This document shows, one piece after another, positions 4,237-36,827 of a DNA stretch of 37,524 bases. The notes beneath the pieces are model-generated. The model did not search any database, had not been told where the DNA came from, and was given only the letters and a program-made list of their open reading frames with translations. Both the position numbers and the translations under genes were made by a program. Within the stretch, counting starts at the first letter, position 1; each line of letters starts with the position of its first letter. The stretch comes from a virus (Duplodnaviria > Heunggongvirae > Uroviricota > Caudoviricetes): IMG/VR virus record IMGVR_UViG_2718217884_000001, positions 1 to 37,524 of that record. One strand, 5' to 3'.

Positions 4237-4485
4237 ATGAGCACTGATATTTCAATTCGTGTACCAAAAGTGATAGCGACGCCAGCCGAGTTTGCTAAGT
4301 GGGAAGGGTATTCCCGTGGTTCTGTTTATCAGATGATTCATAACGGTAAATTGGCTAACTACATTGAAAAGAAAGAAAAAAACAAAGGCCGCGTATTCAT
4401 CCTTTACCTCAAGTACAAAAAAGACCAAGCAAGCAAAAACATGGACAAGTCTGCATTCAATTACAACGTTGTAGTTGGTTGTTAA
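4237..4485 (+). CDS. Apl/Cox-like excisionase and transcriptional regulator
   Basis: 82-aa basic protein, first gene of the rightward operon opposite cI, position as 186 apl / P2 cox. Confidence 0.5.
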   Translation: MSTDISIRVPKVIATPAEFAKWEGYSRGSVYQMIHNGKLANYIEKKEKNKGRVFILYLKYKKDQASKNMDKSAFNYNVVVGC

Positions 4486-4517
4486 GTTCAATTATGTGAA
4501 CTTTTGAGGTATGAAAC

Positions 4518-5027
4518 ATGTTTGATTATAAGATTTCCAAACATCCGCATTTTGATGAAGCCTGCCGGGCTTTCTCGCTGCGTCACAACATGGCGAAGCT
4601 GGCAGAACGCGCAGGAATGAATGTCCAGACGCTGCGCAACAAGCTGAACCCGGAGCAACCGCATCAACTTACCCCGCCGGAGATCTGGCTGCTGACTGAT
4701 ATCACAGAAGACTCAACGCTGGTTGACGGTTTTCTGGCTCAAATCCATTGCCTGCCGTGCGTGCCATTGAATGAAGTGGCAAAAGAGAAGCTGCCGCATT
4801 ACGTCATGAGAGCTACTGCTGAAATCGGACGTGTTGCTGCCGGTGCCGTATCGGGTGATGTGAAAACCACCGCAGGCCGCCGCGATGTTATCAGCAGCAT
4901 TAACTCTGTTACTCGTCTGATGGCACTGGCTGCCGTTTCGATGCAGGCGCGTTTACAGGCTAACCCGGCGATGGCAAGCGCGGTGGATACCGTGACGGGC
5001 CTCGGCGCTTCGTTTGGTCTGATCTGA
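4518..5027 (+). CDS. cII: 186 CII-like lysogeny establishment activator
   Basis: 169 aa; MFDYKISKHPHFDEACRAFSLRHNMAKLAERAGMNVQTLRNKLNPEQPH... resembles phage 186 CII; GAGGT RBS. Confidence 0.75.
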   Translation: MFDYKISKHPHFDEACRAFSLRHNMAKLAERAGMNVQTLRNKLNPEQPHQLTPPEIWLLTDITEDSTLVDGFLAQIHCLPCVPLNEVAKEKLPHYVMRATAEIGRVAAGAVSGDVKTTAGRRDVISSINSVTRLMALAAVSMQARLQANPAMASAVDTVTGLGASFGLI

Positions 5028-6925: not shown

Positions 6926-9324
6926 GTAAATTCACATTACATAATGCACCAACCACCGGCGGCTCGAATGAGGCCGCCGTGGCCTTTTCATGGAATAACC
7001 CCAAAAAAGCGGTTAACCCATATCTGGACCCGGCGGAAGTTGCGCCGGGGTCTGCGCTTTCAAACCTGATTGCTCTTTACGCTGCGGATAACGAGCAGGA
7101 GCAGCTGCGCCGTGAGGCGCTGAGCGATGAGGTCTGGGAACGCTATTTCTTCAATGAATCCCGTGATCCTGTCCAGCGCGAAATGGAGCAGGACCGGCTG
7201 ATTAGTCGTGCCAAAATGGCGCGCGAGCAGCAGCGTTTTAATCCCGATCTGGTCATTCTGGCTGACGTTAACGCCATGCCGTCCCATATCAGCAAGCCTC
7301 TGCTGGAGCGGATTAAATATTTCCATAGCCTGGGCAGAGCAAAAGCCTATTCCCGCTACCTGCGCGAAACAATTAGGCCCTGTCTTGAGCGGCTGGAGCG
7401 CGTGCGTGACAGTCAGGTGTCTGCCTCTTTCCGGTTCATGGCAAGTCATGACGGGCTGGAGGGGCTGCTGGTACTGCCTGAAATGAATCAGGATCAGGTC
7501 AAGCGTCTTTCCACGCTGGTTGCGGCTCATATGAGCATGTGTCTTGATGCGGCCTGCGGTGATCTGTTTGTCAGCGACGATGTTAAACCAGAAGAAATCC
7601 GCCAGGCATGGGAAAGGGTTGCAGCAGAGGCGATGCGCCTTGAGATCATCCCGCCTGCGTTTGAGCAGTTACGCCGCAAAAAGCGTCGACGCAAGCCGGT
7701 GCCCTATGAACTGATCCCACCGTCGCTGGCGCGGATGCTGTGCGCGGACTGGTGGTATCGCAAATTGTGGCAGATGCGCTGCGAGTGGCGGGAGGAACAG
7801 CTGCGTGCTGTCTGCCTGGTCAACAAAAAAGCGTCCCCGTATGTCAGCTATGAAGCCGTGATCCACAAGCGCGAGCAGCGCCGCAAATCGCTGGAGTTCT
7901 TCCGCTCACATGAGCTGGTCAACGAAGACGGTGACACGCTGGACATGGAAGACGTGGTGAACGCCAGTAACAGCAACCCGGCACACCGCCGTAATGAAAT
8001 GATGGCCTGTGTTAAGGGACTGGAGCTGATAGCGGAAATGCGCGGAGACTGCGCAGTGTTCTATACCATCACCTGCCCGTCACGCTTCCACGCAACCCTC
8101 AACAACGGCAGACCTAATCCGAAGTGGACCAGTGCCACAGTCCGGCAGAGCAGTGACTATCTGGTTGATACGTTCGCCGCTTTCCGCAAGGCAATGCACA
8201 AGGCCGGGCTGCGCTGGTATGGCGTCCGCGTTGCGGAGCCGCACCATGACGGCACAGTGCACTGGCATCTGTTGTGCTTCATGCGCAAAAAAGACCGCCG
8301 TTTCATCACTGCGATGCTGCGCAAGTTTGCCATCCGTGAAGACCGCGAGGAGCTGGGCACCAACACCGGGCCGCGCTTCAAATCCGAGCTAATCAACCCG
8401 CGCAAGGGCACGCCGACCAGCTACATCGCCAAATACATCAGCAAGAACATCGACGGGCGTGGGCTGGCTAAAGAAATCAGCAAAGAAACCGGCAGATCGC
8501 TGCGTGACAGTGCCGAGCATGTCAGCGCCTGGGCGTCACTGCACCGTGTCCAGCAATTTCGTTTCTTTGGTATTCCAGGGCGTCAGGCATACCGCGAGCT
8601 GCGCTTGCTGGCTGGTCAGGTGGCGAGAGTGCAGGGCGAACGCAAAGCGGGTGCGCCGGTACTGGATAATCCGCGTCTGGATGCGGTACTGGCGGCGGCT
8701 GATGCGGGCTGCTTTGCCACCTACATCATGAAGCAGGGCGGCGTGCTGGTTCCCCGCAAACATCACCTTGTCCGCACGGCTTATGAGCTTAACGACGAAC
8801 CGAGCGCCTACGGCGATCACGGTATCCGTATCTATGGCATCTGGTCCCCGATTGCAGAGGGCAAGATTTGCACGCACGCGGTGAAGTGGAAAAAGGTTCG
8901 TAAGGCCGTTGATGTTCAGGAGGCGGCAGCCGACCAGGGCGCTTGCGCCCCTTGGACTCGTGGCAATAACTGTCCCCCTGTTGAAAATCTGAACAAATCA
9001 GGGGGGGATTTACCCGATATTAAAACTATGGATGAGAGGGAGCTGCAGGAATATCTCCACAACATGGGCCAGAAGGAACGGCGGGAGCTGACAGCCAGGT
9101 TAAGGCTGGTAAAACCGAAGCGGAAAAAAGCATATAAACAGACTATTTCGGATCAGCAGCGCCTGCAGCTTGAGGCAGAACTGAGTTCCAGAGGGTTCGA
9201 TGGTAGCGAGTCAGAGATTGACCTGCTTCTGCGCGGCGGCAGTATTCCGTCAGGTGCCGGGCTGCGTATTTTTTACCGCAACCACCGTCTGCAGGAAGAT
9301 GACAAATGGCGTCAGTGGTACTGA
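6916..9324 (+). CDS. A: Replication initiation endonuclease (P2 gpA family, rolling circle)
   Basis: 802 aa, GTG start overlapping dam stop; contains conserved segment around HxH and tyrosine-containing YIAKYISK characteristic of gpA. Confidence 0.88.
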
Positions 9325-9485: not shown

Positions 9486-9674
9486 ATGCAGGATTATCTT
9501 TTGGAGTCGTTGAAGCTCCAGCGCATTGATTTTTTTATCAAGCTTGTAGCGGCTAGTGAGTGTAGCGACGAAGAAAAGCGGCTGGCTATCCAGTGGGTGT
9601 CCGAACTGACCGACGAGCTGATGGCGAAAATCCGCAGCCATGAATACTGCCGGTCAATGGATGTAACCAGTTAA
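9486..9674 (+). CDS. Small SOS-controlled protein (candidate antirepressor, Tum-position)
   Basis: 62 aa from ATG 9486 with GGAGGG RBS; directly downstream of LexA box; the longer 9378 start would precede the promoter. Confidence 0.5.
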   Translation: MQDYLLESLKLQRIDFFIKLVAASECSDEEKRLAIQWVSELTDELMAKIRSHEYCRSMDVTS

Positions 9675-19581: not shown

Positions 19582-20439
19582 CTATGAAATTAGTGATATT
19601 TTTTGATTGTAGTAATCATAATCCGCATGTTCTTCAGTAAAGAATAATTCAAAAGCCGTTAGCATATTTGAATAAAAACTATCTTTTGATATTGCAGTTT
19701 TTCTCTCATTTTTAGCTAAGTAATTGGTTATGAATCTTAATGATGCTGAGAATAGAAAGTGCCCCTTTATCCAATGCGTTATGCAAGTGTTGGCAGGAAA
19801 TTGAATGTTGTTTTTTTCTGCTAACCCTACATTTCTGAAATCATCAGGAAGGGTTTGAATATAAGCATTTATCTTATCTTGACATGTTTTGTAAGAGTTT
19901 TTTGATTGCATAAATCTATCGCATGAATCACCTACTACGGAATAGCCACGCTGATTTAAATGATTGTAAATATCTAAGGCAATTAGGTCTTCAATATTGT
20001 TATAAAACTCTAATAGCCAGGAGTTTATATTTATTCCTTGGATTTCTTTGGCACTGTATCTTCCCATGTGTTTTAACACACGGGATAGGACTTTCTCATC
20101 GACTATAGTATTTTCAATTGAGTAACCTTTTGTATAGATGATGTTTGTATGATTTACTAAGTTGGATGAAAAATGATTCAGATCTGCATCGCGGGCAACA
20201 ATTGCGTTTATTTGTCCTGATGTGATTCGCTCAATATAAGGTTCTAATGCTTCACACCCTCCAACTTCTTGCACTTCAACACTTAGTCGACCATTTTTTT
20301 TGAAAACTATTTCCCAAAATCCAATATCATCCTCACCTTCAACATATACCATGATATCAGCATCATAAAACATGCTGATAACATTTTCCGCCTCGTCAGA
20401 CCAATTAAAGTTATCTGTTCGAATCTCATTATTGGACAT
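19582..20439 (-). CDS. TOPRIM/DUF4435-like protein (PARIS AriB-like candidate effector)
   Basis: ATG 20439 overlaps the last codons of upstream ATPase gene; conserved acidic motifs VYVEGEDD and IVARDAD spaced as in TOPRIM folds; AT-rich. Confidence 0.5.
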   Translation of the reverse strand: MSNNEIRTDNFNWSDEAENVISMFYDADIMVYVEGEDDIGFWEIVFKKNGRLSVEVQEVGGCEALEPYIERITSGQINAIVARDADLNHFSSNLVNHTNIIYTKGYSIENTIVDEKVLSRVLKHMGRYSAKEIQGININSWLLEFYNNIEDLIALDIYNHLNQRGYSVVGDSCDRFMQSKNSYKTCQDKINAYIQTLPDDFRNVGLAEKNNIQFPANTCITHWIKGHFLFSASLRFITNYLAKNERKTAISKDSFYSNMLTAFELFFTEEHADYDYYNQKISLIS

Positions 20440-21682
20440 TGACAAGTTTCTCCATGTTAAAAATTGCACTCCTGTATTTTGAAGCTACTTCTGGAGAATG
20501 TGTGGCAGCTATTACTTGTGCATTGGGATTGAGTTTTTTGATTGCTGGGATAATGTTTCTTTGCCATTGAATATGTAGGGAGAGTTCAGGCTCATCTGTT
20601 AGGAAAATATATTGTTTTTCTCTTTGTAATAGGGTTTCTATGAATAAAATAAGTAATTGCTTCTCACCTGAAGATAAATTTTCCTGAATTATTGGTCCGT
20701 AAGTATTCTTTATGGAAAGTATTCCGCCTTGAAAGTCAAATTCCTTATCAGTAATAAATTCTTTTAAAATACTTAAAAATTGTTCAATGGGAGCGAAAAC
20801 TAAAGATGTTTTTTCTTTAGATTTTAAAGACATTCTAATTATTTTTTGTGTCTTTCTTAGCGCTTCAATTGAGCGGATGTCAAAACCATCTTTTTTATTT
20901 TGTTTTAATTCTGCAATGGTGTGATCAATAGTGTCAACATGGAAATTTATTTTCCGACGGACATTCATATCAATAGCGTTTAGTTGTGTGTACGCACTTA
21001 AAAGGTTTTGTTTTTCTTCCTCCTTGTTAAATTGAATGTTGTACGCCTTATCATCAATATCATCTTTACTATATAGAATAGATGCTAAAACTTCTTTTTG
21101 AAGTTCTAATGCAATATCTCTCGCTCGTTGAGATAATTCAAGTTGATATTTTGTTAATTCCTGCATTAATTCTGATAGTTTATAATCGACAGGGTTGATA
21201 AAGCGAGAGCCGTATTTGTCTCTAACCTCAAAGTCGTCACTATTCCTTAGTCTATAGACGGATAAAGATGAGAGTGAAACCAGTTTTGCTAATTCTGCTC
21301 TTAACTCCTCAGTCTCTTCTTGTGCTCTGCGTCTATAACTGAGGGAGATTCTTCTGTCATCGGCGTTGAATAGTCGGATGGTATGTTTTTTTGATGAAAG
21401 TTGATACTCTATTTTAGAGAACGGTGATGTATCACTCTCGATTTTCTTAATTTTTATTGTCTTAGTTTTCTTTTTGTCCTTTAGTTTTATTTCGGCACTA
21501 TTGAAATCATTGTTGTTAATGCCATCAAGGTCAATTGATAAAATTGAATGCAAAATATTCATAAAAGTTGTTTTGCCGGTTCCATTCCTTCCAATGATGA
21601 TGTTTACATCATCATTAAAAGAGCAAAGAGCATTTAATCTTTGCCAAAAACCATTGATAGCGATGCTTTGTATTTTATACAT
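20429..21682 (-). CDS. ABC-type ATPase (AAA_15/OLD-N-like; PARIS AriA-like candidate sensor)
   Basis: Walker A GRNGTGKTT, ABC signature LSSGEKQ, Walker B IFLTDEPELSLH, H-loop ATHSP; AAGGAG RBS 7 nt before ATG 21682; AT-rich. Confidence 0.6.
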   Translation of the reverse strand: MYKIQSIAINGFWQRLNALCSFNDDVNIIIGRNGTGKTTFMNILHSILSIDLDGINNNDFNSAEIKLKDKKKTKTIKIKKIESDTSPFSKIEYQLSSKKHTIRLFNADDRRISLSYRRRAQEETEELRAELAKLVSLSSLSVYRLRNSDDFEVRDKYGSRFINPVDYKLSELMQELTKYQLELSQRARDIALELQKEVLASILYSKDDIDDKAYNIQFNKEEEKQNLLSAYTQLNAIDMNVRRKINFHVDTIDHTIAELKQNKKDGFDIRSIEALRKTQKIIRMSLKSKEKTSLVFAPIEQFLSILKEFITDKEFDFQGGILSIKNTYGPIIQENLSSGEKQLLILFIETLLQREKQYIFLTDEPELSLHIQWQRNIIPAIKKLNPNAQVIAATHSPEVASKYRSAIFNMEKLVNVQ

Positions 21683-21725
21683 CAACTTACTCCTTGTTTT
21701 GGTTGAGTCGAACTTATCAACTGTT

Positions 21726-23620: not shown

Positions 23621-24218
23621 CCTGTTGCCGCCGGGTTCGTCGCCGCTTGAGCGCCGACTGGCGCAGACCTGCAGCGGGATTTCCGATCTGCAGGTATCGC
23701 TGCGTGATTTGTGGAATCCGTCAATCTGCCCGGTCAGATTCCTGCCTTATCTGGCCTGGGCGTTTTCTGTTGACCGCTGGGATGAGAGCTGGACAGAAAG
23801 CGTCAAGCGCCGCGTTGTGCAGGACGCTTTTTATATCCATCAGCACAAGGGGACAACCAGCGCCGTGCGGCGCGTGGTGGAGCCGTTCGGCTTTCTGATC
23901 CGCATCATTGAGTGGTGGCAGACTGGCGAAATACCAGGGACGTTCCGTCTGGATATTGGCGTGCAGGACCAGGGCATAACAGAAGAAACCTATCTGGAGC
24001 TGGAGCGCCTGATCGGTGACGCCAAACCGTGCAGCCGTCACCTGGTTGGTATGTCCATCAACCTGCAGACAGGTGGCCCGTATTTTGTGGGCGCAGCCAC
24101 CTACACCGGCGAAGAAATCACGATCTACCCGTATATCAACGAAACCATTATTTCCGGCGGCACCGCTTATGAGGGCGGGGCGGTCCATGTTATTGACACG
24201 ATGAGAGTGAACCCATGA
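23613..24218 (+). CDS. I: Baseplate/tail protein I (P2 gpI)
   Basis: ATG 23613 overlapping J stop. Confidence 0.8.
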   Translation: MNSLLPPGSSPLERRLAQTCSGISDLQVSLRDLWNPSICPVRFLPYLAWAFSVDRWDESWTESVKRRVVQDAFYIHQHKGTTSAVRRVVEPFGFLIRIIEWWQTGEIPGTFRLDIGVQDQGITEETYLELERLIGDAKPCSRHLVGMSINLQTGGPYFVGAATYTGEEITIYPYINETIISGGTAYEGGAVHVIDTMRVNP

Positions 24219-25203
24219 GCGCAAAATTTTACACCCTGCTGACGGATATCGGCGCGGCGAAACTGGTAAGCGCCGCCGCGCTCGGTGTCCCACTAAAAAT
24301 TACCCATATGGCGGTGGGCAGCGGTGGTGGTATGCTGCCCACACCCAACGCGCAACAGACCGCGTTAGTGGCTGAGGAACGCCGCGCAGCGCTGAATATG
24401 CTGTATATCGACCCACAGAACAGCAGCCAGATTATTGCTGAGCAGGTGATCCCGGAAAATGAGGGCGGGTGGTGGATTCGTGAAGTCGGCCTGTTTGATG
24501 AAACAGGTGCGCTAATTGCTGTGGGAAACTGCCCGGAGAGCTACAAGCCGAAGCTGGCGGAGGGCAGCGGACGCACGCAGACCGTGCGAATGGTACTGAT
24601 TACCAGCAGCACGGATAACATCACCCTGAAAATTGACCCCGCTGTGGTTCTGGCAACCCGCAAATATGTGGATGATAAGGTGCTGGAACTTAAGGTGTAT
24701 GTGGATGACCTGATGGCAAAGCATCTTGCTGCGGTTGATCCTCATTCGCAATATGCACCAAAAGACAGTCCGACTCTGACAGGCATGCCTAAAACGCCAA
24801 CGCCACCGGCAGGAAACAACAGCACCCTGATTGCCAGTACAGCCTTTGTACAGGCCGCTATTCTTGCCCTGATAGGTGGCGCACCGGCAATGCTGGATAC
24901 GCTGAAAGAAATTGCGGCAGCTATCAATAATGACCCGAATTTCAGTACCACCATTAACAATGCGCTGGCACTGAAAGCACCACTGGCAAGCCCAGCCCTG
25001 ACCGGAACGCCAACGGCTCCGACTGCGGCGCAGACTGTGAACAATACGCAGATTGCCACTACAGCATTTGTGAAGGCAGCTATTGCCGGGCTGGTTGGTT
25101 CATCGCCGGAGGCGCTGGACACACTGAATGAACTGGCAGCTGCGCTGGGGAATGATCCTAACTTTGCGACAACAGTGATGAACGCGCTGGCGGGGAAACA
25201 GCC

Positions 25204-26542
25204 CATAAGCGCTAACTTAAGGGTTGAACCATCTGAAGAATGCGACGCCTCGGTGCCTCGTTAAGACGATGCCTCGCGTTCTTCAATTGCGTTTTGTAGG
25301 CTGTCAGGGATACTGTCCCACGAATGGCCACCTGTAAGCTCCAGATGACCATTTTTGTTATTCTCCACAACGAGTTAGTTCTTCTTTTCGGATCCGGCAC
25401 TTCTGGGGGGGAAATCCAGCGATGGCTGGATTATGTCGTCAATTAAAAATGCGGCGAGTAGATTAGCAAATATCCACGCTTTCGCGAGTTCAGGTTCCTT
25501 TGCACGCAAAGCATCCAGGTGCAGCAAACTTTTGAGCCGCTTAAAAGCCAGTTCAATTTGCCATCGCAGACGGTAACAATCAGCCACTTGCTCTGCTGAA
25601 TATTCATCTTCCGGTAATGATGTTAGCAATAGCACATGGCCCGCTGCTTCCAGCGTTTCCGCCTGAACTACTCGTCCTTTTCGACGATTCTCGCTGAGCA
25701 GTCGGGTTTTACTGATTAATGCTTTTTCGGGAGGAAGTGATACGGCAATGAGACGTGCCGGAAAGGGAGCTCCGGCTTTTTTATTACCTGAATTGCCTAT
25801 CATTACAGTGGTTTCACCGTTCTTACCGCAATCCAGCCCGCGCAGAAAACCCATCATGTCAAAGCGCATTCCTTCTGCAGTTAACCAGCGCAATCCTCGC
25901 CAGTGAACCCGGACGATATAATCAGCTTCTCCAAAAGCAAGTGAGCGGATACATTCGGGACGCGAACCGAATCCCCGGTCAGCAATGCGTATCTCGTCTG
26001 CCGTTTGCGCAAATCGGTCCAGCCGTTCAGCGTCTCTGCTGTCGGTTAGCTCAAAATCAGTGAACTGACAGGTATGAGGATCATATCCCATATGTAGTCG
26101 CCATTCAGCGCTGCCGCCCCCGGGCGCACTGATTGCTGTTCCATCGACAAGACGCAATCTCTTTCCGCTTGTACAACCCGTAACTGCGGCGCGTACAGCA
26201 AGTGTTTGTGCGGCAAGTATGCCAAACCAGTCGGCGGCATTCCGCAGCCGCTTCAGGAGAGCCACGTCAGATAATGTTGCAACGTCATGGAGCTGAGCCC
26301 ATGCAGTGACTTCACGTAATGACATCCCCCCGGGGCCGTAAGCCAGCCCCAGACGTAGCAGAGTTGCAGCATCACGAATTTCGCGGCGGCGGGTTAGAGC
26401 CCCGGCATTACGTGCCGAAGTATCCAGTTCTTCGGGCTTACCAATATGGGCCAGAATTGCTGACCAGTTATCGTGAGAGTAATTCATCGGCACGTTAAAT
26501 CATATCAGGCGTAATACCACAACCCTTAAGTTAGCGCTTATG
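25204..26542 (-). mobile_element. IS186 (IS4 family) insertion
   Basis: Inverted repeats CATAAGCGCTAACTTAAGGGTTG / CAACCCTTAAGTTAGCGCTTATG; direct repeat GGAAACAGCC at 25194..25203 and 26543..26552. Confidence 0.88.
25375..26493 (-). CDS. IS186 transposase (DDE, YREK motif)
   Basis: 372 aa; ...CYRLRWQIELAFKRLKSLL contains the IS4-family Y-R-E-K signature. Confidence 0.88.
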   Translation of the reverse strand: MPMNYSHDNWSAILAHIGKPEELDTSARNAGALTRRREIRDAATLLRLGLAYGPGGMSLREVTAWAQLHDVATLSDVALLKRLRNAADWFGILAAQTLAVRAAVTGCTSGKRLRLVDGTAISAPGGGSAEWRLHMGYDPHTCQFTDFELTDSRDAERLDRFAQTADEIRIADRGFGSRPECIRSLAFGEADYIVRVHWRGLRWLTAEGMRFDMMGFLRGLDCGKNGETTVMIGNSGNKKAGAPFPARLIAVSLPPEKALISKTRLLSENRRKGRVVQAETLEAAGHVLLLTSLPEDEYSAEQVADCYRLRWQIELAFKRLKSLLHLDALRAKEPELAKAWIFANLLAAFLIDDIIQPSLDFPPRSAGSEKKN

Positions 26543-26590
26543 GGAAACAGCCCCTCGATGCCACTTTGACTAACCTCAGCGGGAAAAGTG

Positions 26591-26616
26591 TTTCAGCCCT
26601 TCTACAATACCTTGGT
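26591..26616. promoter_or_regulatory. Hin/Gin-type recombination site (left crossover site of invertible tail-fibre segment)
   Basis: TTCTACAATACCTTGGTTTGGGAGAA; 12-bp half-sites around a central TT, resembles hix/gix; located in H at the constant/variable junction. Confidence 0.65.
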
Positions 26617-27083
26617 TTGGGAGAAGGCTCAGCGTTACCCGTTGGTGTACCTGTTCCGTGGTCTTCAGCCACTCCTCCAACAGGCTGGCTGAAATGCAAT
26701 GGTGCGCCTTTTTCTGCCGAAGAGTATCCGGAACTGGCAAAAGTTTATCCGACAAATGAATTGCCAGATTTACGTGGTGAGTTTATTCGTGGCTGGGATG
26801 ACGGGCGCGGTATTGACGCGGGGCGCGAAATTCTGTCTGCTCAGGGTGACGCCATTCGAAATATCGTTGGGCATATCTCATGCGTGCGTCGTGGGCCTGA
26901 AGGTTCAGACCGTGCCGATGGCGCGTTTAGATACGATAGCAACTGGTCTACAAAAATTAGATCGACTGATTTAGCAGACGACTGGGGGAGCGTAGTCTCA
27001 TTTGATGCCAGTCGCGTAGTTCCAACTGCACCAGAAAACCGTCCACGCAGTATCGCATTTAACTTCATCGTGAGGGCCGCATA

Positions 27084-27686
27084 ATGACACAGGCAAAATT
27101 AAACAGTGAATTTATTGCCACAGTAGCGGGTGATATGACCGTCTATAACTATGACAACACGACACGGGAATACATTTCATCATCAACAGAATATCTTGCC
27201 GTTGGCGTCGGTATCCCGGCATGTTCTTGTTTAGATGCACCAGTTACACATAAAGCTGGTTATGCAATCTGCCGTTCTGCAGATTTTAACTCATGGGAAT
27301 ATGTGCCAGACCATCGCGGTGAAATCATCTATAGCACCGAAACAGGAGAATCGAAAGAAATCACAGCTCTGGGTGATTACCCTGAAAATACAACCACTAT
27401 CGCCCCGTTAACGCCATATGATAAATGGGATGGTGAGAAATGGGTGACGGATACCGAGGCACAGCACGGCGCAGCAGTAGATGCAGCAGAAGCACAGCGC
27501 CAGTCGCTGATTGATACTGCAATGGCCTCCATCAGTCTGATTCAGCTGAAATTGCAGGCCGGACGTAAACTGACGCAGGCAGAAACAACCCGCCTTAACG
27601 CTGTGCTGGATTACATTGACGCGGTGACGGCAACAGATACCAGCACCGCGCCGGATGTCATCTGGCCTGAACTGCCGGAGGCGTAG
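27084..27686 (+). CDS. G: Tail fibre assembly chaperone (P2 gpG-like)
   Basis: 200 aa; C-terminal ...DYIDAVTATDTSTAPDVIWPELP typical of Tfa proteins. Confidence 0.8.
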   Translation: MTQAKLNSEFIATVAGDMTVYNYDNTTREYISSSTEYLAVGVGIPACSCLDAPVTHKAGYAICRSADFNSWEYVPDHRGEIIYSTETGESKEITALGDYPENTTTIAPLTPYDKWDGEKWVTDTEAQHGAAVDAAEAQRQSLIDTAMASISLIQLKLQAGRKLTQAETTRLNAVLDYIDAVTATDTSTAPDVIWPELPEA

Positions 27687-28110
27687 GCCATTCAATATCT
27701 GGCGCACCGGAAGTATCGACCAGCTCCAGTGCGTCCAGATAATCCAGCCACAAATTATATTGCGCCAGTTCATCATCTTTCAGACGACCAATAGCGGCTT
27801 TACCGGGCCATTGCTTACTGTTCATGTATTCGTTGGCCTGGTTAATTAGTAGCTGTCTTTCTGATTCAGTAATTTCAATAAGCTCTTCATGCGTGGGTGG
27901 AGGAATATCTGCCCACGCAGGCAGCCCATCATTTCCGGCAATACGGATTTTTCCTTGTGGCGGTTCAGCCATAAACTCACTGATAATATTTTGATTCACT
28001 TCCTTAGCATCTGATAAATCCCATCCCTCTGATTTATATTTATCAATCATATCCACAGGGAAAAAAGCATTATGCCTTGCGCTATAAACATATTCGTTCA
28101 TATAAATCAC
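27658..28110 (-). CDS. Alternative tail fibre assembly chaperone (inverted orientation)
   Basis: 150 aa; C-terminal ...DYLDALELVDTSGAPDIEWP parallels gpG; convergent with G. Confidence 0.75.
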   Translation of the reverse strand: MIYMNEYVYSARHNAFFPVDMIDKYKSEGWDLSDAKEVNQNIISEFMAEPPQGKIRIAGNDGLPAWADIPPPTHEELIEITESERQLLINQANEYMNSKQWPGKAAIGRLKDDELAQYNLWLDYLDALELVDTSGAPDIEWPTPPAVQAR

Positions 28111-28121
28111 CCTGAATAAAA

Positions 28122-28481
28122 TTACTCACCAACAGCCCACCAACTGTAATTCATCGATACAGTGTTGCTGGTTGATGACGTTCTGTAAGCAGAATTAAAG
28201 CCGGTTAACGTTGGGTCTTCTGCAGTCATCATGAACCCTCGCCCAGCGCCTAAAGGCGCACCGCCATCACCAGAATGAGTAAGCATGGCGCAGTCCGCTT
28301 TTTTGGGGAAAGGGATGCTGAATGTAATTCTCATTGTTTGCGTCGATAATGTCGGCGTAACCGCACCACGACCATATTGCAGGATTTTCCCGTTGGGTAA
28401 TTTCATCCATCCATCACCACTGGCAAAAGAGGCCATGTCCGGTATCTGATTTTCCCCTGTCCCCACATCCCGTTTTGCCGC
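28122..28481 (-). CDS. Alternative tail fibre C-terminal segment (promoterless; fused to H after inversion)
   Basis: Open frame continues from the right crossover site; after inversion would read ...YLGLGE-AAKRDVGTGENQ... in frame with H. Confidence 0.65.
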   Translation of the reverse strand, partial: AAKRDVGTGENQIPDMASFASGDGWMKLPNGKILQYGRGAVTPTLSTQTMRITFSIPFPKKADCAMLTHSGDGGAPLGAGRGFMMTAEDPTLTGFNSAYRTSSTSNTVSMNYSWWAVGE

Positions 28482-28507
28482 TTCTCCCAAACCAACATTT
28501 AGCCAAA
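28482..28507. promoter_or_regulatory. Hin/Gin-type recombination site (right crossover site)
   Basis: TTCTCCCAAACCAACATTTAGCCAAA; first 14 nt identical to reverse complement of left site inner half-site plus core. Confidence 0.65.
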
Positions 28508-28592
28508 GCCAGTATTGAATCAGTTACGTAGCAAATGATTCCAGCATCTGAAAATCATGGCATGCTGTTTACCTTTTAAGAGGTTATTTTTC

Positions 28593-29150
28593 ATGCAAAT
28601 AGGCTATGTGAGGGTGTCAACAAATGACCAGAACACTGCTTTGCAACGTGATGCACTGGAACGCTCAGGATGTGAGCTAATTTTTGAAGACAAAATGAGC
28701 GGAAAAACAGCAGACAGACCAGGGCTAAAAAGGTTGCTCAGGACGTTATCAGAGGGAGACACGCTGGTTGTATGGAAGCTCGACAGGCTGGGAAGAAGCA
28801 TGCGACACCTTGTTACCCTGATAGAAGAACTCCGGCAGCGCGGAGTTAATTTCCGTAGTCTGACTGACAGCATAGACACCAGTACACCAATGGGGCGGTT
28901 TTTCTTTCACGTTATGGGGGCACTGGCGGAGATGGAACGCGAGTTGATAGTGGAACGAACCCGTGCGGGACTGGAAGCCGCAAGAGCTAAAGGCAGGATT
29001 GGAGGGCGAAGACCAAAACTGACGCCAGAGCAATGGGCACAGGCTGGCAGGTTACTTGCTGCAGGTGAAACACGGCAGCGGGTTGCTTTAATTTTTGATG
29101 TGGGGATCTCGACGTTATACCGCAAATATCCTGCGACATTGTGTGATTAA
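28593..29150 (+). CDS. Serine DNA invertase (Hin/Gin/Pin/Cin family)
   Basis: MQIGYVRVSTNDQN...GDTLVVWKLDRLGRS...MGRFFFHVMGALAEMERELIVERT matches the resolvase/invertase catalytic domain; C-terminal HTH. Confidence 0.9.
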   Translation: MQIGYVRVSTNDQNTALQRDALERSGCELIFEDKMSGKTADRPGLKRLLRTLSEGDTLVVWKLDRLGRSMRHLVTLIEELRQRGVNFRSLTDSIDTSTPMGRFFFHVMGALAEMERELIVERTRAGLEAARAKGRIGGRRPKLTPEQWAQAGRLLAAGETRQRVALIFDVGISTLYRKYPATLCD

Positions 29151-29233
29151 CAGGACAACGCCGCGCAGCTGTCTGCGTGACGTAATCAATACAACATAGG
29201 GCGAAGCCTATTCCAATCAGGAGGTTCGCCGCT

Positions 29234-30406
29234 ATGGCTCAGGATTACCACCACGGGGTGCGCGTTGTTGAAGTCAACGAGGGCACCCGATCTATCACCA
29301 CGGTGAGCACCGCTATCGTGGGCATGGTCTGCACCGGCGATGATGCTGATGCGTCCGTGTTTCCTCTCAATAAGCCGGTTCTGCTGACGGATGTGCTGGA
29401 GGCCAGCGGTAAAGCAGGCGAGTCCGGCACGCTGGCCCGTTCGCTTGATGCGATTGCCGACCAATCAAAACCCGTGACGGTTGTTGTGCGCGTGGCGCAG
29501 GGCGAAACCGAAGCGGAAACCACCTCCAATATTATCGGTGGCGTCACGTCCGACGGTAAAAAAACGGGGATGAAAGCGCTGCTTTCTGCGCAGTCGCAGC
29601 TGAAAGTTAAGCCGCGCATTCTCGGTGTGCCGGGGCATGACACGCAGGCGGTAGCCACTGAGCTGATGAGTATTGCGCAGAGCCTGCGCGGGTTTGCCTA
29701 CCTGTCTGCCTATGGCTGCAAGACGGTGGAGGAAGCCATTGCTTACCGGGACAATTTCAGCCAGCGAGAAGGGATGCTGATCTGGCCTGATTTCATCAAC
29801 TTTGACACCGTTCTTAAAGCCGATGCGACGGCTTACGCCTCCGCACGTGCGCTCGGTCTGCGCGCCAAAATCGACGAACAGACCGGATGGCACAAAACCC
29901 TGTCCAACGTGGGTGTGAATGGCGTCACCGGTCTTTCCGCTGATGTGTTCTGGGATCTGCAGGACCCGGCAACAGACGCGGGACTGCTGAACCAGAATGA
30001 CGTCACCACGCTGATCTGCAAAGACGGCTTCCGCTTCTGGGGTTCCCGCTGCCTCAGTGACGATCCATTGTTTGCGTTTGAGAACTACACCCGTACGGCG
30101 CAGGTGCTGGCTGACACGATTGCAGAGGGGCATATGTGGGCGGTGGATAAGCCACTGAATCCGTCACTGGCCCGCGACATTATCGAAGGTATTCGCGCCA
30201 AATTACGCAGCCTGGTAAATCAGGGATACCTCATCGGGGCGGACTGCTGGCTGGATGAGTCAGTGAACGATAAAGACTCTCTGAAAGCCGGGAAGCTCAC
30301 CATCGACTACGACTACACGCCTGTGCCGCCGCTTGAAAATCTGATGCTGCGCCAGCGCATCACCGATCGCTACCTGGTCGATTTTGCCAGCCGTGTCAGT
30401 GCATAA
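29234..30406 (+). CDS. FI: Tail sheath protein (P2 gpFI)
   Basis: 390 aa, position and size. Confidence 0.88.
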
Positions 30407-30416
30407 GGGGGGATAC

Positions 30417-30932
30417 ATGGCATTACCACGCAAGTTAAAACACCTGAATCTGTTCAACGACGGGAACAACTGGCAGGGGATCGTTGAGTCCCTGACTCTG
30501 CCGAAATTCACCCGCAAGTTTGAGAAGTATCGCGGCGGCGGTATGCCGGGCGCGGTAGATGTGGATATGGGGCTGGATGACGGCGCACTCGACACGGAAT
30601 TTTCAATCGGCGGCACCGAACTGTTGTTATTCAAGCAGATGGGCAAGGCAACCGTTGATGGCATCCAGCTGCGTTTCACCGGCTCTATTCAGCGTGACGA
30701 TACCGGCGAAGTTCAGGCCATTGAGCTGGTTGTGCGGGGGCGTCATAAAGAAGTGGATTCCGGCGAGTGGAAAACCGGCGAGAGCAGCACCACCAAAGTC
30801 AGCAGCACCAACAGCTACGCGAAGCTGACCATTAACGGCGAAGTGCTCTATGAGGTTGATCTGGTCAACATGATTGAAATCGTTGACGGCGCGGACCTGA
30901 TGGAAGCACACCGTAACGCCCTTGGCCTCTGA
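30417..30932 (+). CDS. FII: Tail tube protein (P2 gpFII)
   Basis: ATG 30417; 171 aa. Confidence 0.88.
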   Translation: MALPRKLKHLNLFNDGNNWQGIVESLTLPKFTRKFEKYRGGGMPGAVDVDMGLDDGALDTEFSIGGTELLLFKQMGKATVDGIQLRFTGSIQRDDTGEVQAIELVVRGRHKEVDSGEWKTGESSTTKVSSTNSYAKLTINGEVLYEVDLVNMIEIVDGADLMEAHRNALGL

Positions 30933-30986
30933 TTTAACTTAACGGCGCGGTGATCCGCGCCAGTATCTGATTAACAGGAAACGAAC

Positions 30987-31289
30987 ATGAGCGACAAGCT
31001 GACTGAAAAAACCGTACAACTGGATACGCCCATCATGCGCGGTAAAACCCAAATCACCGAAATTGTGCTGCGTAAGCCGCAGTCCGGTGCGCTGCGCGGC
31101 ACCCGCCTGCAGGCCATTATGGATATGGACGTGGGGGCCATGATGACAGTGATCCCGCGTATTTCCACCCCAACGCTGACCGCACAGGAAATGGCTGAAC
31201 TGGACCCCGCCGATCTCACCGCGCTGTCGGTCGAGGTGGTGACTTTTTTGTTGAAGAAGTCGGTGCTTGCCGGTTTACCGACAGCCTGA
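30987..31289 (+). CDS. E: Tail assembly chaperone E (P2 gpE)
   Basis: 100 aa; contains slippery TTTTTTG near 3' end. Confidence 0.8.
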   Translation: MSDKLTEKTVQLDTPIMRGKTQITEIVLRKPQSGALRGTRLQAIMDMDVGAMMTVIPRISTPTLTAQEMAELDPADLTALSVEVVTFLLKKSVLAGLPTA

Positions 31290-36462: not shown

Positions 36463-36509
36463 TTTGGTGGAGCTGGCGGGAGTTGAACCCGCGTCCGAAA
36501 TTCCTACAT
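36463..36509 (-). repeat. attR core: 47-bp direct repeat (within intact ssrA 3' end)
   Basis: Identical to 2294..2340. Confidence 0.9.
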
Positions 36510-36827
36510 CCTCGGTACTACATGCTTAGTCAGTCTTTACATTCGCTTGCCAGCTGCGGACGGACACGCCACTAACAAACTAGCCTGATTAAGTTTTAAC
36601 GCTTCAACCCCAGGCAGGGCTTCCACGCGATCTCTTTTGGGTTTGACCTCTCTTGATCCCCGTCCTAAGAGCGGAGGCTAGGGAGAGAGGGCTCTAAGCA
36701 GGTTATTAAGCTGCTAAAGCGTAGTTTTCGTCGTTTGCGACTATTTTTTGCGGCTTTTTACGAGGCCAACCGCCCCTCGGCATGCACCTTGGGTTTCGCA
36801 AATCCCGTCGAATCCAGAATCAGCCCC
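36465..36827 (-). ncRNA. ssrA: tmRNA (SsrA), intact
   Basis: Reverse complement begins GGGGCTGATTCTGGATTCGACGGG and ends GGTTCAACTCCCGCCAGCTCCACCA; tag region GCAAACGACGAAAACTACGCTTTAGCAGCTTAA (ANDENYALAA) present. Confidence 0.95.

Follow-up and report, generated by a model that had tools for sequence, protein, structure and literature searches.

A Gin/Cin/Pin-type invertible tail-fibre cassette in a P2/186-like prophage whose H gene is interrupted by IS186

We analysed a stretch of 37,524 nucleotides (the window) which, to judge from its gene order and flanks, holds a complete P2/186-like prophage inserted at ssrA in E. coli. The prophage carries a Gin/Cin/Pin-type invertible tail-fibre cassette at the end of gene H; IS186 has broken the constant part of H, and the DNA very probably still inverts with no effect on host range. 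The original prediction had described a host-range switch of the Mu G or P1 C kind; we found every element of such a switch, the enhancer as a prediction from its sequence, the comparison is apt, and the nearest relative proves to be the P segment of e14.

The invertase, encoded just outside the segment, would bind two inverted 26-bp sites, and host Fis, bound to an enhancer early in the invertase coding sequence, would assist cleavage at the identical TT cores. The DNA would then be rotated and religated, leaving a segment of 1,884 bp reversed. As the segment now lies, the constant part of H leads into a Collar-type tip, with the cognate chaperone behind it; the reverse orientation would fuse that part in frame to a Gp53-like tip, with a second chaperone next in line. 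The two tips would confer different receptor specificities, and their swap would give particles a specificity other than the present one.

In P2-type phages, integrase, repressor and replication genes precede those for portal and terminase, capsid and lysis, and these are followed by the baseplate genes and fibre gene in the order V-W-J-I-H, then sheath, tube, tape measure, D and ogr. The window follows this P2-like (Peduoviridae) order, being colinear with, and 99.95% identical to, the annotated prophage of strain LS45. Direct repeats at 2294–2340 and 36464–36509 lie beside ssrA, the flank (ssrA, smpB) is E. coli-like, and the entire right-hand match to LS45 is 99.67% identical. Outside the cassette and the insertion sequence, just five substitutions and three small indel events within the prophage separate it from that of LS45.

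Crossover sites, tips and chaperones

The two 26-bp sites, to which no strand is assigned, follow a 12+2+12 register. The left site, TTCTACAATACC TT GGTTTGGGAGAA, occupies 26600–26625, and the right site, TTCTCCCAAACC AA CATTTAGCCAAA, occupies 28482–28507, with its core at 28494–28495. The original prediction of two inverted 26-bp sites was correct for the right one and misplaced the left one by 9 bp, at 26591–26616, an interval that contains just 5/14 of the shared bases; the 12-bp half-site and 2-bp core that it held to be common to both sites are indeed present, in the register of the Gin family. An inverted-repeat search of the region returned a repeat of 15 nt at 26612–26626 and 28481–28495, with 100% complementarity. 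The cores are identical at both sites, TT on the left and AA on the right, which is TT on the other strand, and strand exchange at the left site would be expected at the TT core, 26612–26613.

Exactly two copies of the 14-mer TTGGTTTGGGAGAA are present in the window, one on each strand; when two mismatches were allowed there were four matches, compared with 0.35 expected. A scan with TTNTCNNAAACCNNGGTTTNNGANAA, allowing up to four mismatches, found just the two crossover sites in 37.5 kb, compared with a mean of 0.13 matches per window in 30 shuffles. The same scan also recovers the annotated boundaries of the Mu G segment (gix), P1 cixL together with its crossover point, and the ends of the e14 P segment (pix). 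In the proposed alignment to gix, cix and pix, our sites fit the register confirmed on these annotated positions. Multi-inversion systems such as those of p15B and EPEC have a third crossover site, of which the consensus scan found none in the window; the next best match, with five mismatches, is distant, at 19816, in an unrelated gene. The outer half of the right site (CATTTAGCCAAA) fits the consensus poorly, yet it is identical in prophages that have inverted, and indeed both left and right sites are identical in the LS45, 702/18 and L3Cip3 prophages. Experiment has placed inversion of the e14 P segment at a 16-base repeat (PMC12529663), 15 bases of which are covered by the shared arm, TTGGTTTGGGAGAAG.

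The segment between the crossover points (26612–28495, 1,884 bp) is bounded by the two cores and, like the sites, is unstranded. On its plus strand lie a variable C-terminus of H, tip A (26626–27084; Pfam Collar, E 2.4e-14, and translation), which is at present in frame with the constant part of H, and the cognate tail-fibre assembly chaperone A of 200 aa (27084–27686; Pfam Caudo_TAP, E 1.7e-32), homologues of which are annotated as tfaE or tail fiber assembly protein. On the minus strand lie a silent variable C-terminus, tip B (28122–28481; Pfam Gp53-like_C, E 4.9e-13), and its cognate chaperone B of 147 aa (27658–28101; Pfam Caudo_TAP, E 6.9e-31). The two chaperone genes are convergent and overlap by 29 bp. 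Tip B has no promoter, and its sole start of its own is a TTG within the crossover site; it would be expressed only once the segment has inverted. These Pfam domains and translations agree with the content originally read from the DNA, about 1.9 kb with a tip and chaperone on the plus strand and a promoterless tip with its own chaperone on the minus strand. Inversion in silico yielded a flipped H of 473 aa, compared with 506 aa for IS-free H in the present orientation, and verified the anticipated in-frame fusion, ...YLGLGE/AAKRDV.... The cassette is thus composed of a constant 5′ part outside the segment and two mirror-image tips with chaperones inside it, with both fusions in frame.

The serine invertase and its predicted enhancer

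Just outside the segment, where an invertase of the Hin/Gin/Pin family had been predicted, the plus strand encodes a serine DNA invertase of the Gin/Cin/Pin/Hin family (28593–29150, 185 aa), with a ribosome-binding site, AAGAGG, 8 nt 5′ of the gene. Pfam assigns residues 3–135 to a Resolvase domain (E 7.5e-53) and residues 138–181 to HTH_7, and the protein is 74.1% identical to Gin, 77.8% to Cin and 83.1% to PinE, all of which share with it the serine motif GYVRVSTNDQ. The closest solved structure is that of Mu Gin (3uj3, E 2.6e-88 over residues 1–182), whereas the match to γδ resolvase is far weaker (E 3e-31). Invertases of the Din family are about 185–195 aa long and have their serine nucleophile near residue 9–10 of an N-terminal catalytic domain. 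By its sequence, the enzyme has the characters of the Din family, being a small serine recombinase with a C-terminal HTH and close to the founding invertases. In L3Cip3, whose DNA is 100% identical over 28481–31000, a stretch that includes the gene, the product is recorded as WP_053264365.1.

A predicted recombinational (Fis-dependent) enhancer, again unstranded, lies inside the invertase gene at 28611–28682 and begins 116 bp from the right crossover point. It aligns without gaps to the annotated P1 enhancer (cin nt 19–90), with 59 of the 72 positions identical, and 53/72 agree with the corresponding part of Mu gin. Synonymous sites are unusually conserved there: within codons 7–30, 58% of pairs have identical synonymous codons, compared with 38% in the remainder of the gene. 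Two candidate Fis-type 15-mers of the form G-N13-C can be read off the sequence, at 28614–28628 and 28663–28677. The one terminator-like hairpin that turned up, at 28663–28677, was not taken as a terminator, because it sits within the coding region and the predicted enhancer. A crude scan of the 97 bp that precede the invertase gene found no sigma-70 consensus promoter above threshold; Din-family invertases are known to be weakly expressed. We infer that the invertase is expressed and that the switch depends on Fis.

IS186 in gene H and inversion in sister prophages

The constant N-terminal part of H is now divided. Its portion 5′ of the insertion (24215–25203, plus strand) contains the Pfam Phage_tail_fib N-terminal domain (E 5e-63), and its last 59 nt (...LDATLTNLSGKSVSALLQYL; 26553–26611, plus strand) are severed from that portion by IS186 (25204–26542, minus strand; 1,339 bp), which interrupts H 57 bp upstream of the left crossover site. 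The element has termini CATAAGCGCTAACTTAAGGGTTG, contains a transposase ORF with a DDE_Tnp_1 domain (25375–26493, minus strand), is 99.7% identical to K-12 IS186A and is bordered by a 10-bp target duplication, GGAAACAGCC, at 25194–25203 and 26543–26552. Members of this IS4-family type are ~1.34 kb long, with 23-bp terminal inverted repeats, a DDE transposase, a duplication of 10–12 bp and a G/C-flanked target; the target here reads GGGGAAACAGCCCC, which conforms to the reported preference of IS186. The insertion, its terminal repeats and its duplication having been located, the earlier reading of H as broken by IS186 stands.

The sister prophages LS45, 702/18 and L3Cip3 lack IS186 and have uninterrupted sequence at this position. 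The portion of H 5′ of the insertion is 99.97% identical to the intact H of the LS45 prophage, and 26542–26626 is 100% identical to 702/18 and L3Cip3. Deletion of the element together with one copy of the duplication yields a single H frame of 506 aa. The present H ORF reads into IS186 and stops at 25264 (349 aa), and a 172-aa ORF with a TTG start (26566–27084), which includes the tip, persists downstream. With H in this state, neither orientation allows a full-length fibre to be produced. The suggestion that the switch may be non-functional therefore holds for the full-length fibre, which is abolished, but probably not for the DNA switch itself, the sites, predicted enhancer and invertase gene all being intact. 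Because IS186 spares every part of the switch, flipping probably persists but would no longer alter host range. Neither the IS186/H junction nor the present junction of cassette and invertase occurs in any complete E. coli genome (0 records covering ≥80% of the query). The IS junction had no exact match in species-representative genomes, and there is no protein record for the truncated H/IS fusion protein.

Genome comparison revealed the same prophage in LS45 and 702/18 with the 1.9-kb segment in opposite orientations. The inversion breakpoints overlap within the 15-bp repeat, identity of the flanks is 100% across stretches of 3,275 and 3,820 bp, and the two prophages share protein accessions, including those of the invertase and both chaperones. 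Among seven genomes with an identical invertase flank, one tip type adjoins the invertase in four and the other in three. A related cassette, carried by another P2-like prophage, is likewise inverted between two assemblies of strain ST2747. The segment thus occurs in both orientations in this lineage, in which it inverts at these sites; the window shows one orientation only. Since the cassette here differs from those of the sister prophages, the evidence for flipping covers the sites and the enzyme, not the exact cassette. Nevertheless, since both orientations exist in a prophage that is the same in invertase, sites and flanks, the present copy is probably still able to flip. We infer that it does so in the strain from which the window derives; given switch parts that are intact and identical to those of flipped sister prophages, inversion with no effect on host range is very probable.

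Short inverted repeats are common, with 18 in the region, mostly imperfect, and one might by chance lie beside an unrelated resolvase-type gene. The repeat described here, however, fits the register of a 26-bp site at both ends, with identical cores, it falls exactly at the in-frame junction of the fibre gene and it matches the inversion breakpoints between genomes, while only ∼0.13 such sites per window are expected by chance. The site register, the breakpoints and the shuffle expectation together refute coincidence, to which we attach practically no weight. We also think it improbable that the window holds a frozen relic, which has the anatomy of an invertible segment but no longer flips, for example because the invertase is unexpressed in the lysogen, and which belongs to a module decaying after the arrival of IS186. 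A single visible orientation and the absence of a consensus promoter upstream of the invertase would fit such a relic, as would relaxed selection on the switch, H being already inactivated. Against it, the stretch 28481–31000, comprising right site, spacer, invertase and enhancer, is not only unchanged from L3Cip3 but 99.96% identical to 702/18; the left site and its surroundings are likewise unchanged in a lineage that is found in both orientations; and elsewhere the prophage has almost no mutations relative to LS45, which argues that the insertion is recent. Furthermore, other Pin-family enzymes in the cell can act in trans on the same repeat (PMC12529663; PMC4134206).

The switch might instead serve the host, if inversion yields fibre-tip fragments that mask receptors and thereby protect the cell from other phages. 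PinQ flips the e14 P segment, whose reported role is protection against other phages by receptor masking (PMC12529663), and the window cassette is of the e14 type, with the repeat described in that study; moreover, the 172-aa ORF that carries a tip remains 3′ of IS186. We nevertheless consider such a role very unlikely. The tip from which StfE2 is formed in K-12 is not the one in the window, whose Gp53-like tip is unmatched in K-12 e14, and the sister copies are intact phages for which the classical role suffices. An StfE2-type function was not carried over to the window, because the K-12 P segment shares just part of the cassette. We therefore favour a phage tail-fibre switch whose DNA still inverts and whose fibre has been lost to IS186.

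Related switches and exchange of the cassette

The e14 P segment with its invertase PinE shares with the window the inner half-site and core (TT GGTTTGGGAGAA), the mirror order of tip, chaperone, chaperone and tip, and an invertase that adjoins the segment, and its inversion at this repeat has been demonstrated experimentally (PMC4272514; PMC12529663). In the e14-like element of strain OW1E2, the P segment is 99.8% identical to the entire window segment, whereas what the K-12 P segment has in common with it is limited to the Collar tip (91%) and a single chaperone (87.5%). The carriers differ, e14 being lambdoid with Stf as the constant part and the window a P2-like myovirus prophage with a P2-type H, and so do the outer half-sites.

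Switches of P2-like E. coli prophages (EC958 Phi1/Phi2/Phi4, EPEC E2348/69 and NC_041848) contain the same parts in the same place, with H on one side and FI, the sheath gene, on the other. Their 26-bp sites are similar to those of the window, an example being that of EC958 Phi2, TCCTCAATTACC TT GGTTTAGGAGAA. Sequencing has revealed both orientations of such P2-like tail-fibre switches in one culture, in EC958 (PMC4134206) and in EPEC (PMC4272514). Position and parts are also those of the Z/fun hotspot of P2-like phages, in which DNA invertases with inversion of neighbouring genes are frequent (bioRxiv 10.1101/2024.10.15.618418). A record named ‘Escherichia phage P2’ from O157:H43 T22 (NC_041848) matches 86% of the region at 85% identity; its invertase is frameshifted and lacks the HTH domain, whereas that of the window is complete. 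The window is distinguished from these switches by its interrupted H and by a cassette unlike those of its nearest sister prophages.

More distantly, Mu G with Gin and P1 C with Cin employ the same mechanism, S providing the constant part and Sv/U and U′/Sv′ the variable ones, and, as in the window, their invertase lies outside the segment with the enhancer within its gene. The window segment is smaller, 1.9 kb compared with ∼3 kb for Mu G, P1 C being larger still; its core is TT rather than the TC of Mu; and its tips are unrelated to those of Mu and P1, with no DNA match inside the segment. The flagellar switch Hin/hix of Salmonella shares the enzyme family and the Fis/enhancer logic, the HTH domain of Hin being detectably related (1hcr), but Hin flips a promoter, not alternative coding ends. 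Fin, said to have been described by Kutsukake et al. in 2006 as an invertase of the P2-like prophage Fels-2, belongs to the same enzyme family as well. Switches in P2-like E. coli prophages have been published (EC958, EPEC), and the present one belongs to a familiar, ordinary class of phage DNA switches.

Outside its crossover sites the window is of LS45 type, and inside them of e14 type, the identity of 99.8% to OW1E2 extending over exactly 26612–28495. The junctions are confined to 26612–30 and 28470–95 (19 and 26 bp), which include the crossover cores. An otherwise clonal prophage lineage has at least three different cassettes, with nearly all divergence between the sites. That the e14-type homology ends at the crossover sites suggests that the cassette was swapped in there, and we tentatively raise the possibility, doubtful as it is, that the segment is a cassette which unrelated prophages exchange by recombining at the crossover sites of the invertase. 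The same pattern might come from ordinary homologous recombination, given a P2-like donor bearing the same flanks, or from recombination at interior points of the cassette, and one cassette boundary between 702/18 and L3Cip3 is indeed interior. If exchange does occur at the crossover sites, the part played by Din-family invertases would go beyond flipping within an element: they would move receptor-binding modules from one element to another in the same cell, for instance by two long-range events in succession that involve a resident e14-like element and a P2-like prophage.

The importance of the switch is slight beyond correct annotation. In sister genomes the silent tip is labelled ‘hypothetical protein’ and the invertase no more precisely than ‘recombinase family protein’, and the two orientations lead to assemblies and annotations that differ between prophages identical in all else. 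Complete as it looks, the prophage would produce no infectious fibre-bearing particles unless IS186 were lost. Within this nearly clonal lineage the only variable parts are the cassette and a mobile-element insertion, which marks the cassette as a fast-evolving, exchangeable host-range module.

Architecture of the tail-fibre switch

The segment that follows the constant part of the tail-fibre gene H is bounded by a perfect inverted repeat of 15 bp, with arms at 26612-26626 and 28481-28495. With half-sites and core arranged 12+2+12, as in the Gin family, this gives a left crossover site at 26600-26625 (TTCTACAATACC TT GGTTTGGGAGAA) and a right site at 28482-28507 (TTCTCCCAAACC AA CATTTAGCCAAA), with 1,884 bp between the crossover points. 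The cores of the two sites are identical (TT, or AA on the opposite strand), and strand exchange by Gin-family invertases requires identical cores. The original prediction had located the right site exactly and had recognized the 12-bp half-site and 2-bp core common to both, but it set the left site 9 bp too far left. When the consensus TTNTCNNAAACCNNGGTTTNNGANAA was scanned over the whole window, allowing up to four mismatches, it matched at the two crossover sites only; shuffled windows gave a mean of 0.13 matches. The same scan recovered known family sites: the annotated boundaries of the Mu G segment, both cixL and the crossover point as annotated in P1, and the ends of the P segment of e14.

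Within the segment, a fibre tip with a Collar domain prolongs the H reading frame on the plus strand and is followed by a Caudo_TAP chaperone. The minus strand carries a second Caudo_TAP chaperone and an alternative tip with a Gp53-like C-terminal domain, the sole start of its own being a TTG within the crossover site. The domains found thus agree with the mirrored cargo that had been proposed. Inverting the segment in silico joined ...LQYLGLGE to AAKRDV... in frame, as anticipated, giving an H of 473 aa; in the present orientation, with the IS taken out in silico, H is 506 aa. The convergent chaperone genes share 29 bp at their 3' ends (27658-27686), and an imperfect inverted repeat (27605-27622 and 27731-27748) corresponds to a C-terminal motif conserved in both chaperones, on opposite strands.

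Just beyond the right site, at 28593-29150, lies a gene for a serine recombinase of 185 aa with Resolvase and HTH_7 domains. It takes the place of the Z/fun locus of P2, with the fibre genes on one side and the sheath gene on the other. Among solved structures, Mu Gin comes closest to the recombinase (E 2.6e-88). Identity amounts to 74% with Gin, 78% with Cin and 83% with PinE, and the serine motif is retained, which bears out the assignment of the enzyme to the Hin/Gin/Pin family. The 5' part of the gene, where an enhancer was expected, contains a predicted one at 28611-28682 (nucleotides 19-90), which aligns without gaps to the annotated P1 enhancer (59 of 72 bases identical). Synonymous codons were identical in 58% of pairwise comparisons in this stretch, vs 38% in the remaining invertase gene, a level of extra conservation that a DNA element embedded in coding sequence would produce. 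We infer that the switch is Fis-dependent.

Inversion in the lineage and loss of the complete fibre

As a single window shows one orientation, evidence for inversion was taken from lineage genomes. One and the same prophage is present in strains LS45 and 702/18, with flanks 100% identical over 3,275 and 3,820 bp. The two copies share protein accessions for the baseplate, the sheath, both chaperones and the invertase (WP_053264365.1). The segment of 1.9 kb is oppositely oriented in the two, and the alignment breakpoints overlap exactly in the 15-bp repeat. Among the seven complete genomes with an invertase flank 100% identical to that of the window, the Gp53-like tip adjoins the invertase in four and the Collar tip in three. 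Thus, the lineage shows both orientations. E. coli ST2747 has two assemblies that differ by inversion of a related cassette of 1.9 kb, located in another P2-like prophage; one of them has its fibre gene annotated as partial, perhaps because a mixed population affected the assembly.

H is broken in its upstream part, as had been noted, by an IS186 at 25204-26542 that is 99.7% identical to K-12 IS186A, with the transposase on the minus strand, terminal repeats of 23 bp and a 10-bp duplication (GGAAACAGCC). About 330 codons of H precede the element, which interrupts the gene 57 bp upstream of the left site and is absent from the sister prophages; there, the H sequence is uninterrupted at this position. 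The target without the IS (25190-25203 joined to 26543-26556) reads GGGGAAACAGCCCC, a G-run, six bases and a C-run, in keeping with the reported target preference of IS186.

No part of the switch is touched by the insertion. At the left site and around it (26542-26626), the window is 100% identical to 702/18 and to the sister prophage of L3Cip3; over 28481-31000, which takes in the right site, the spacer, the invertase gene and the enhancer region, it is 100% identical to L3Cip3. The suggestion that the switch may be non-functional therefore holds for its product, the complete fibre, which is lost; the DNA switch itself, judged from its intact parts, is very probably still active.

Exchange of the cassette

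The cassette of the window differs from those of the sister prophages. In and across the segment, the window aligns to LS45 only at 26542-26804 (94%) and 27051-27810 (88%), whereas exactly 26609-28495 matches, at 99.8% identity, the P segment that an e14-like element of strain OW1E2 carries, with no similarity beyond. The flanks of 702/18 and L3Cip3 differ at three positions in about 8.6 kb; between the sites, more than 120 positions differ and one stretch cannot be aligned. The prophage lineage, clonal in other respects, contains three or more cassette types. When the segment was used as the query, matches among the top hits always ended inside the two 26-bp sites, irrespective of the carrier; the cassette is therefore the exchangeable unit.

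Exchange may proceed via the invertase sites. Followed base by base, the sequence changes from LS45 type to e14 type somewhere in 26612-26630 and back to LS45 type somewhere in 28470-28495, and both of these intervals, of 19 and 26 bp, include the crossover cores. Cassettes may also be acquired by ordinary homologous recombination with a P2-like donor not seen here; one of the cassette boundaries that set 702/18 apart from L3Cip3 lies in the interior, which shows that homologous recombination is also at work.

In K-12, inversion of the e14 P segment by PinE and PinQ takes place at a 16-base repeat (PMC12529663), with which the window repeat agrees at 15 of 16 bases. Other host Pin enzymes could therefore invert the window segment in trans, an action proposed for EC958 Phi4 (PMC4134206).

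The prophage and related systems

The window holds a whole P2/186-like prophage, bounded by direct repeats of 46-47 bp (2294-2340 and 36464-36509) and inserted at the 3' end of ssrA (tmRNA at 36465-36827). It is colinear with the annotated E. coli LS45 prophage; cassette and IS excluded, the differences between the two prophages are five substitutions, an indel of 6 bp and two further small indels. The only length differences lie at 8954 and 9503-9537: the 6-bp difference is a deletion that keeps the replication endonuclease gene in frame, and insertions of 1 and 2 bp fall in a gene annotated as frameshifted in LS45, so that the window may hold its intact version. To the left of 2294, the window and the LS45 flank do not match, and the upstream neighbourhood therefore differs between the strains; the two minus-strand ORFs there (283-786 and 1031-2128) gave no defence-system match. 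A two-gene minus-strand cargo (19582-21685), flanked by the tail-completion genes and baseplate gene V and also found in the LS45 prophage, matches AriB (DUF4435, E 9e-23) and AriA (AAA ATPase, E 2e-36), and is a predicted PARIS-type anti-phage pair.

The same layout is found in phage records such as NC_041848, pro483 and 500465-1. In NC_041848 ('Escherichia phage P2', O157:H43 T22), a published P2-like phage, the invertase (4460-4954) carries a frameshift at about residue 128, and its DNA-binding helix-turn-helix is missing, so that any inversion would need an enzyme in trans. P2-like prophages of EC958 have 26-bp sites and both orientations within one culture (PMC4134206), tail-fibre inversion in a P2-like prophage of EPEC E2348/69 was detected by sequencing (PMC4272514), and such a switch has been noted as frequent in the Z/fun hotspot (bioRxiv 10.1101/2024.10.15.618418).

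All the defining features that could be tested were found, and the window switch is, as proposed, a classical tail-fibre host-range switch of the kind known from Mu (G/Gin), P1 (C/Cin) and e14 (P/Pin), from which it does not depart. Because this kind of system is already known, and the organism well sampled, we consider its interest to be low.
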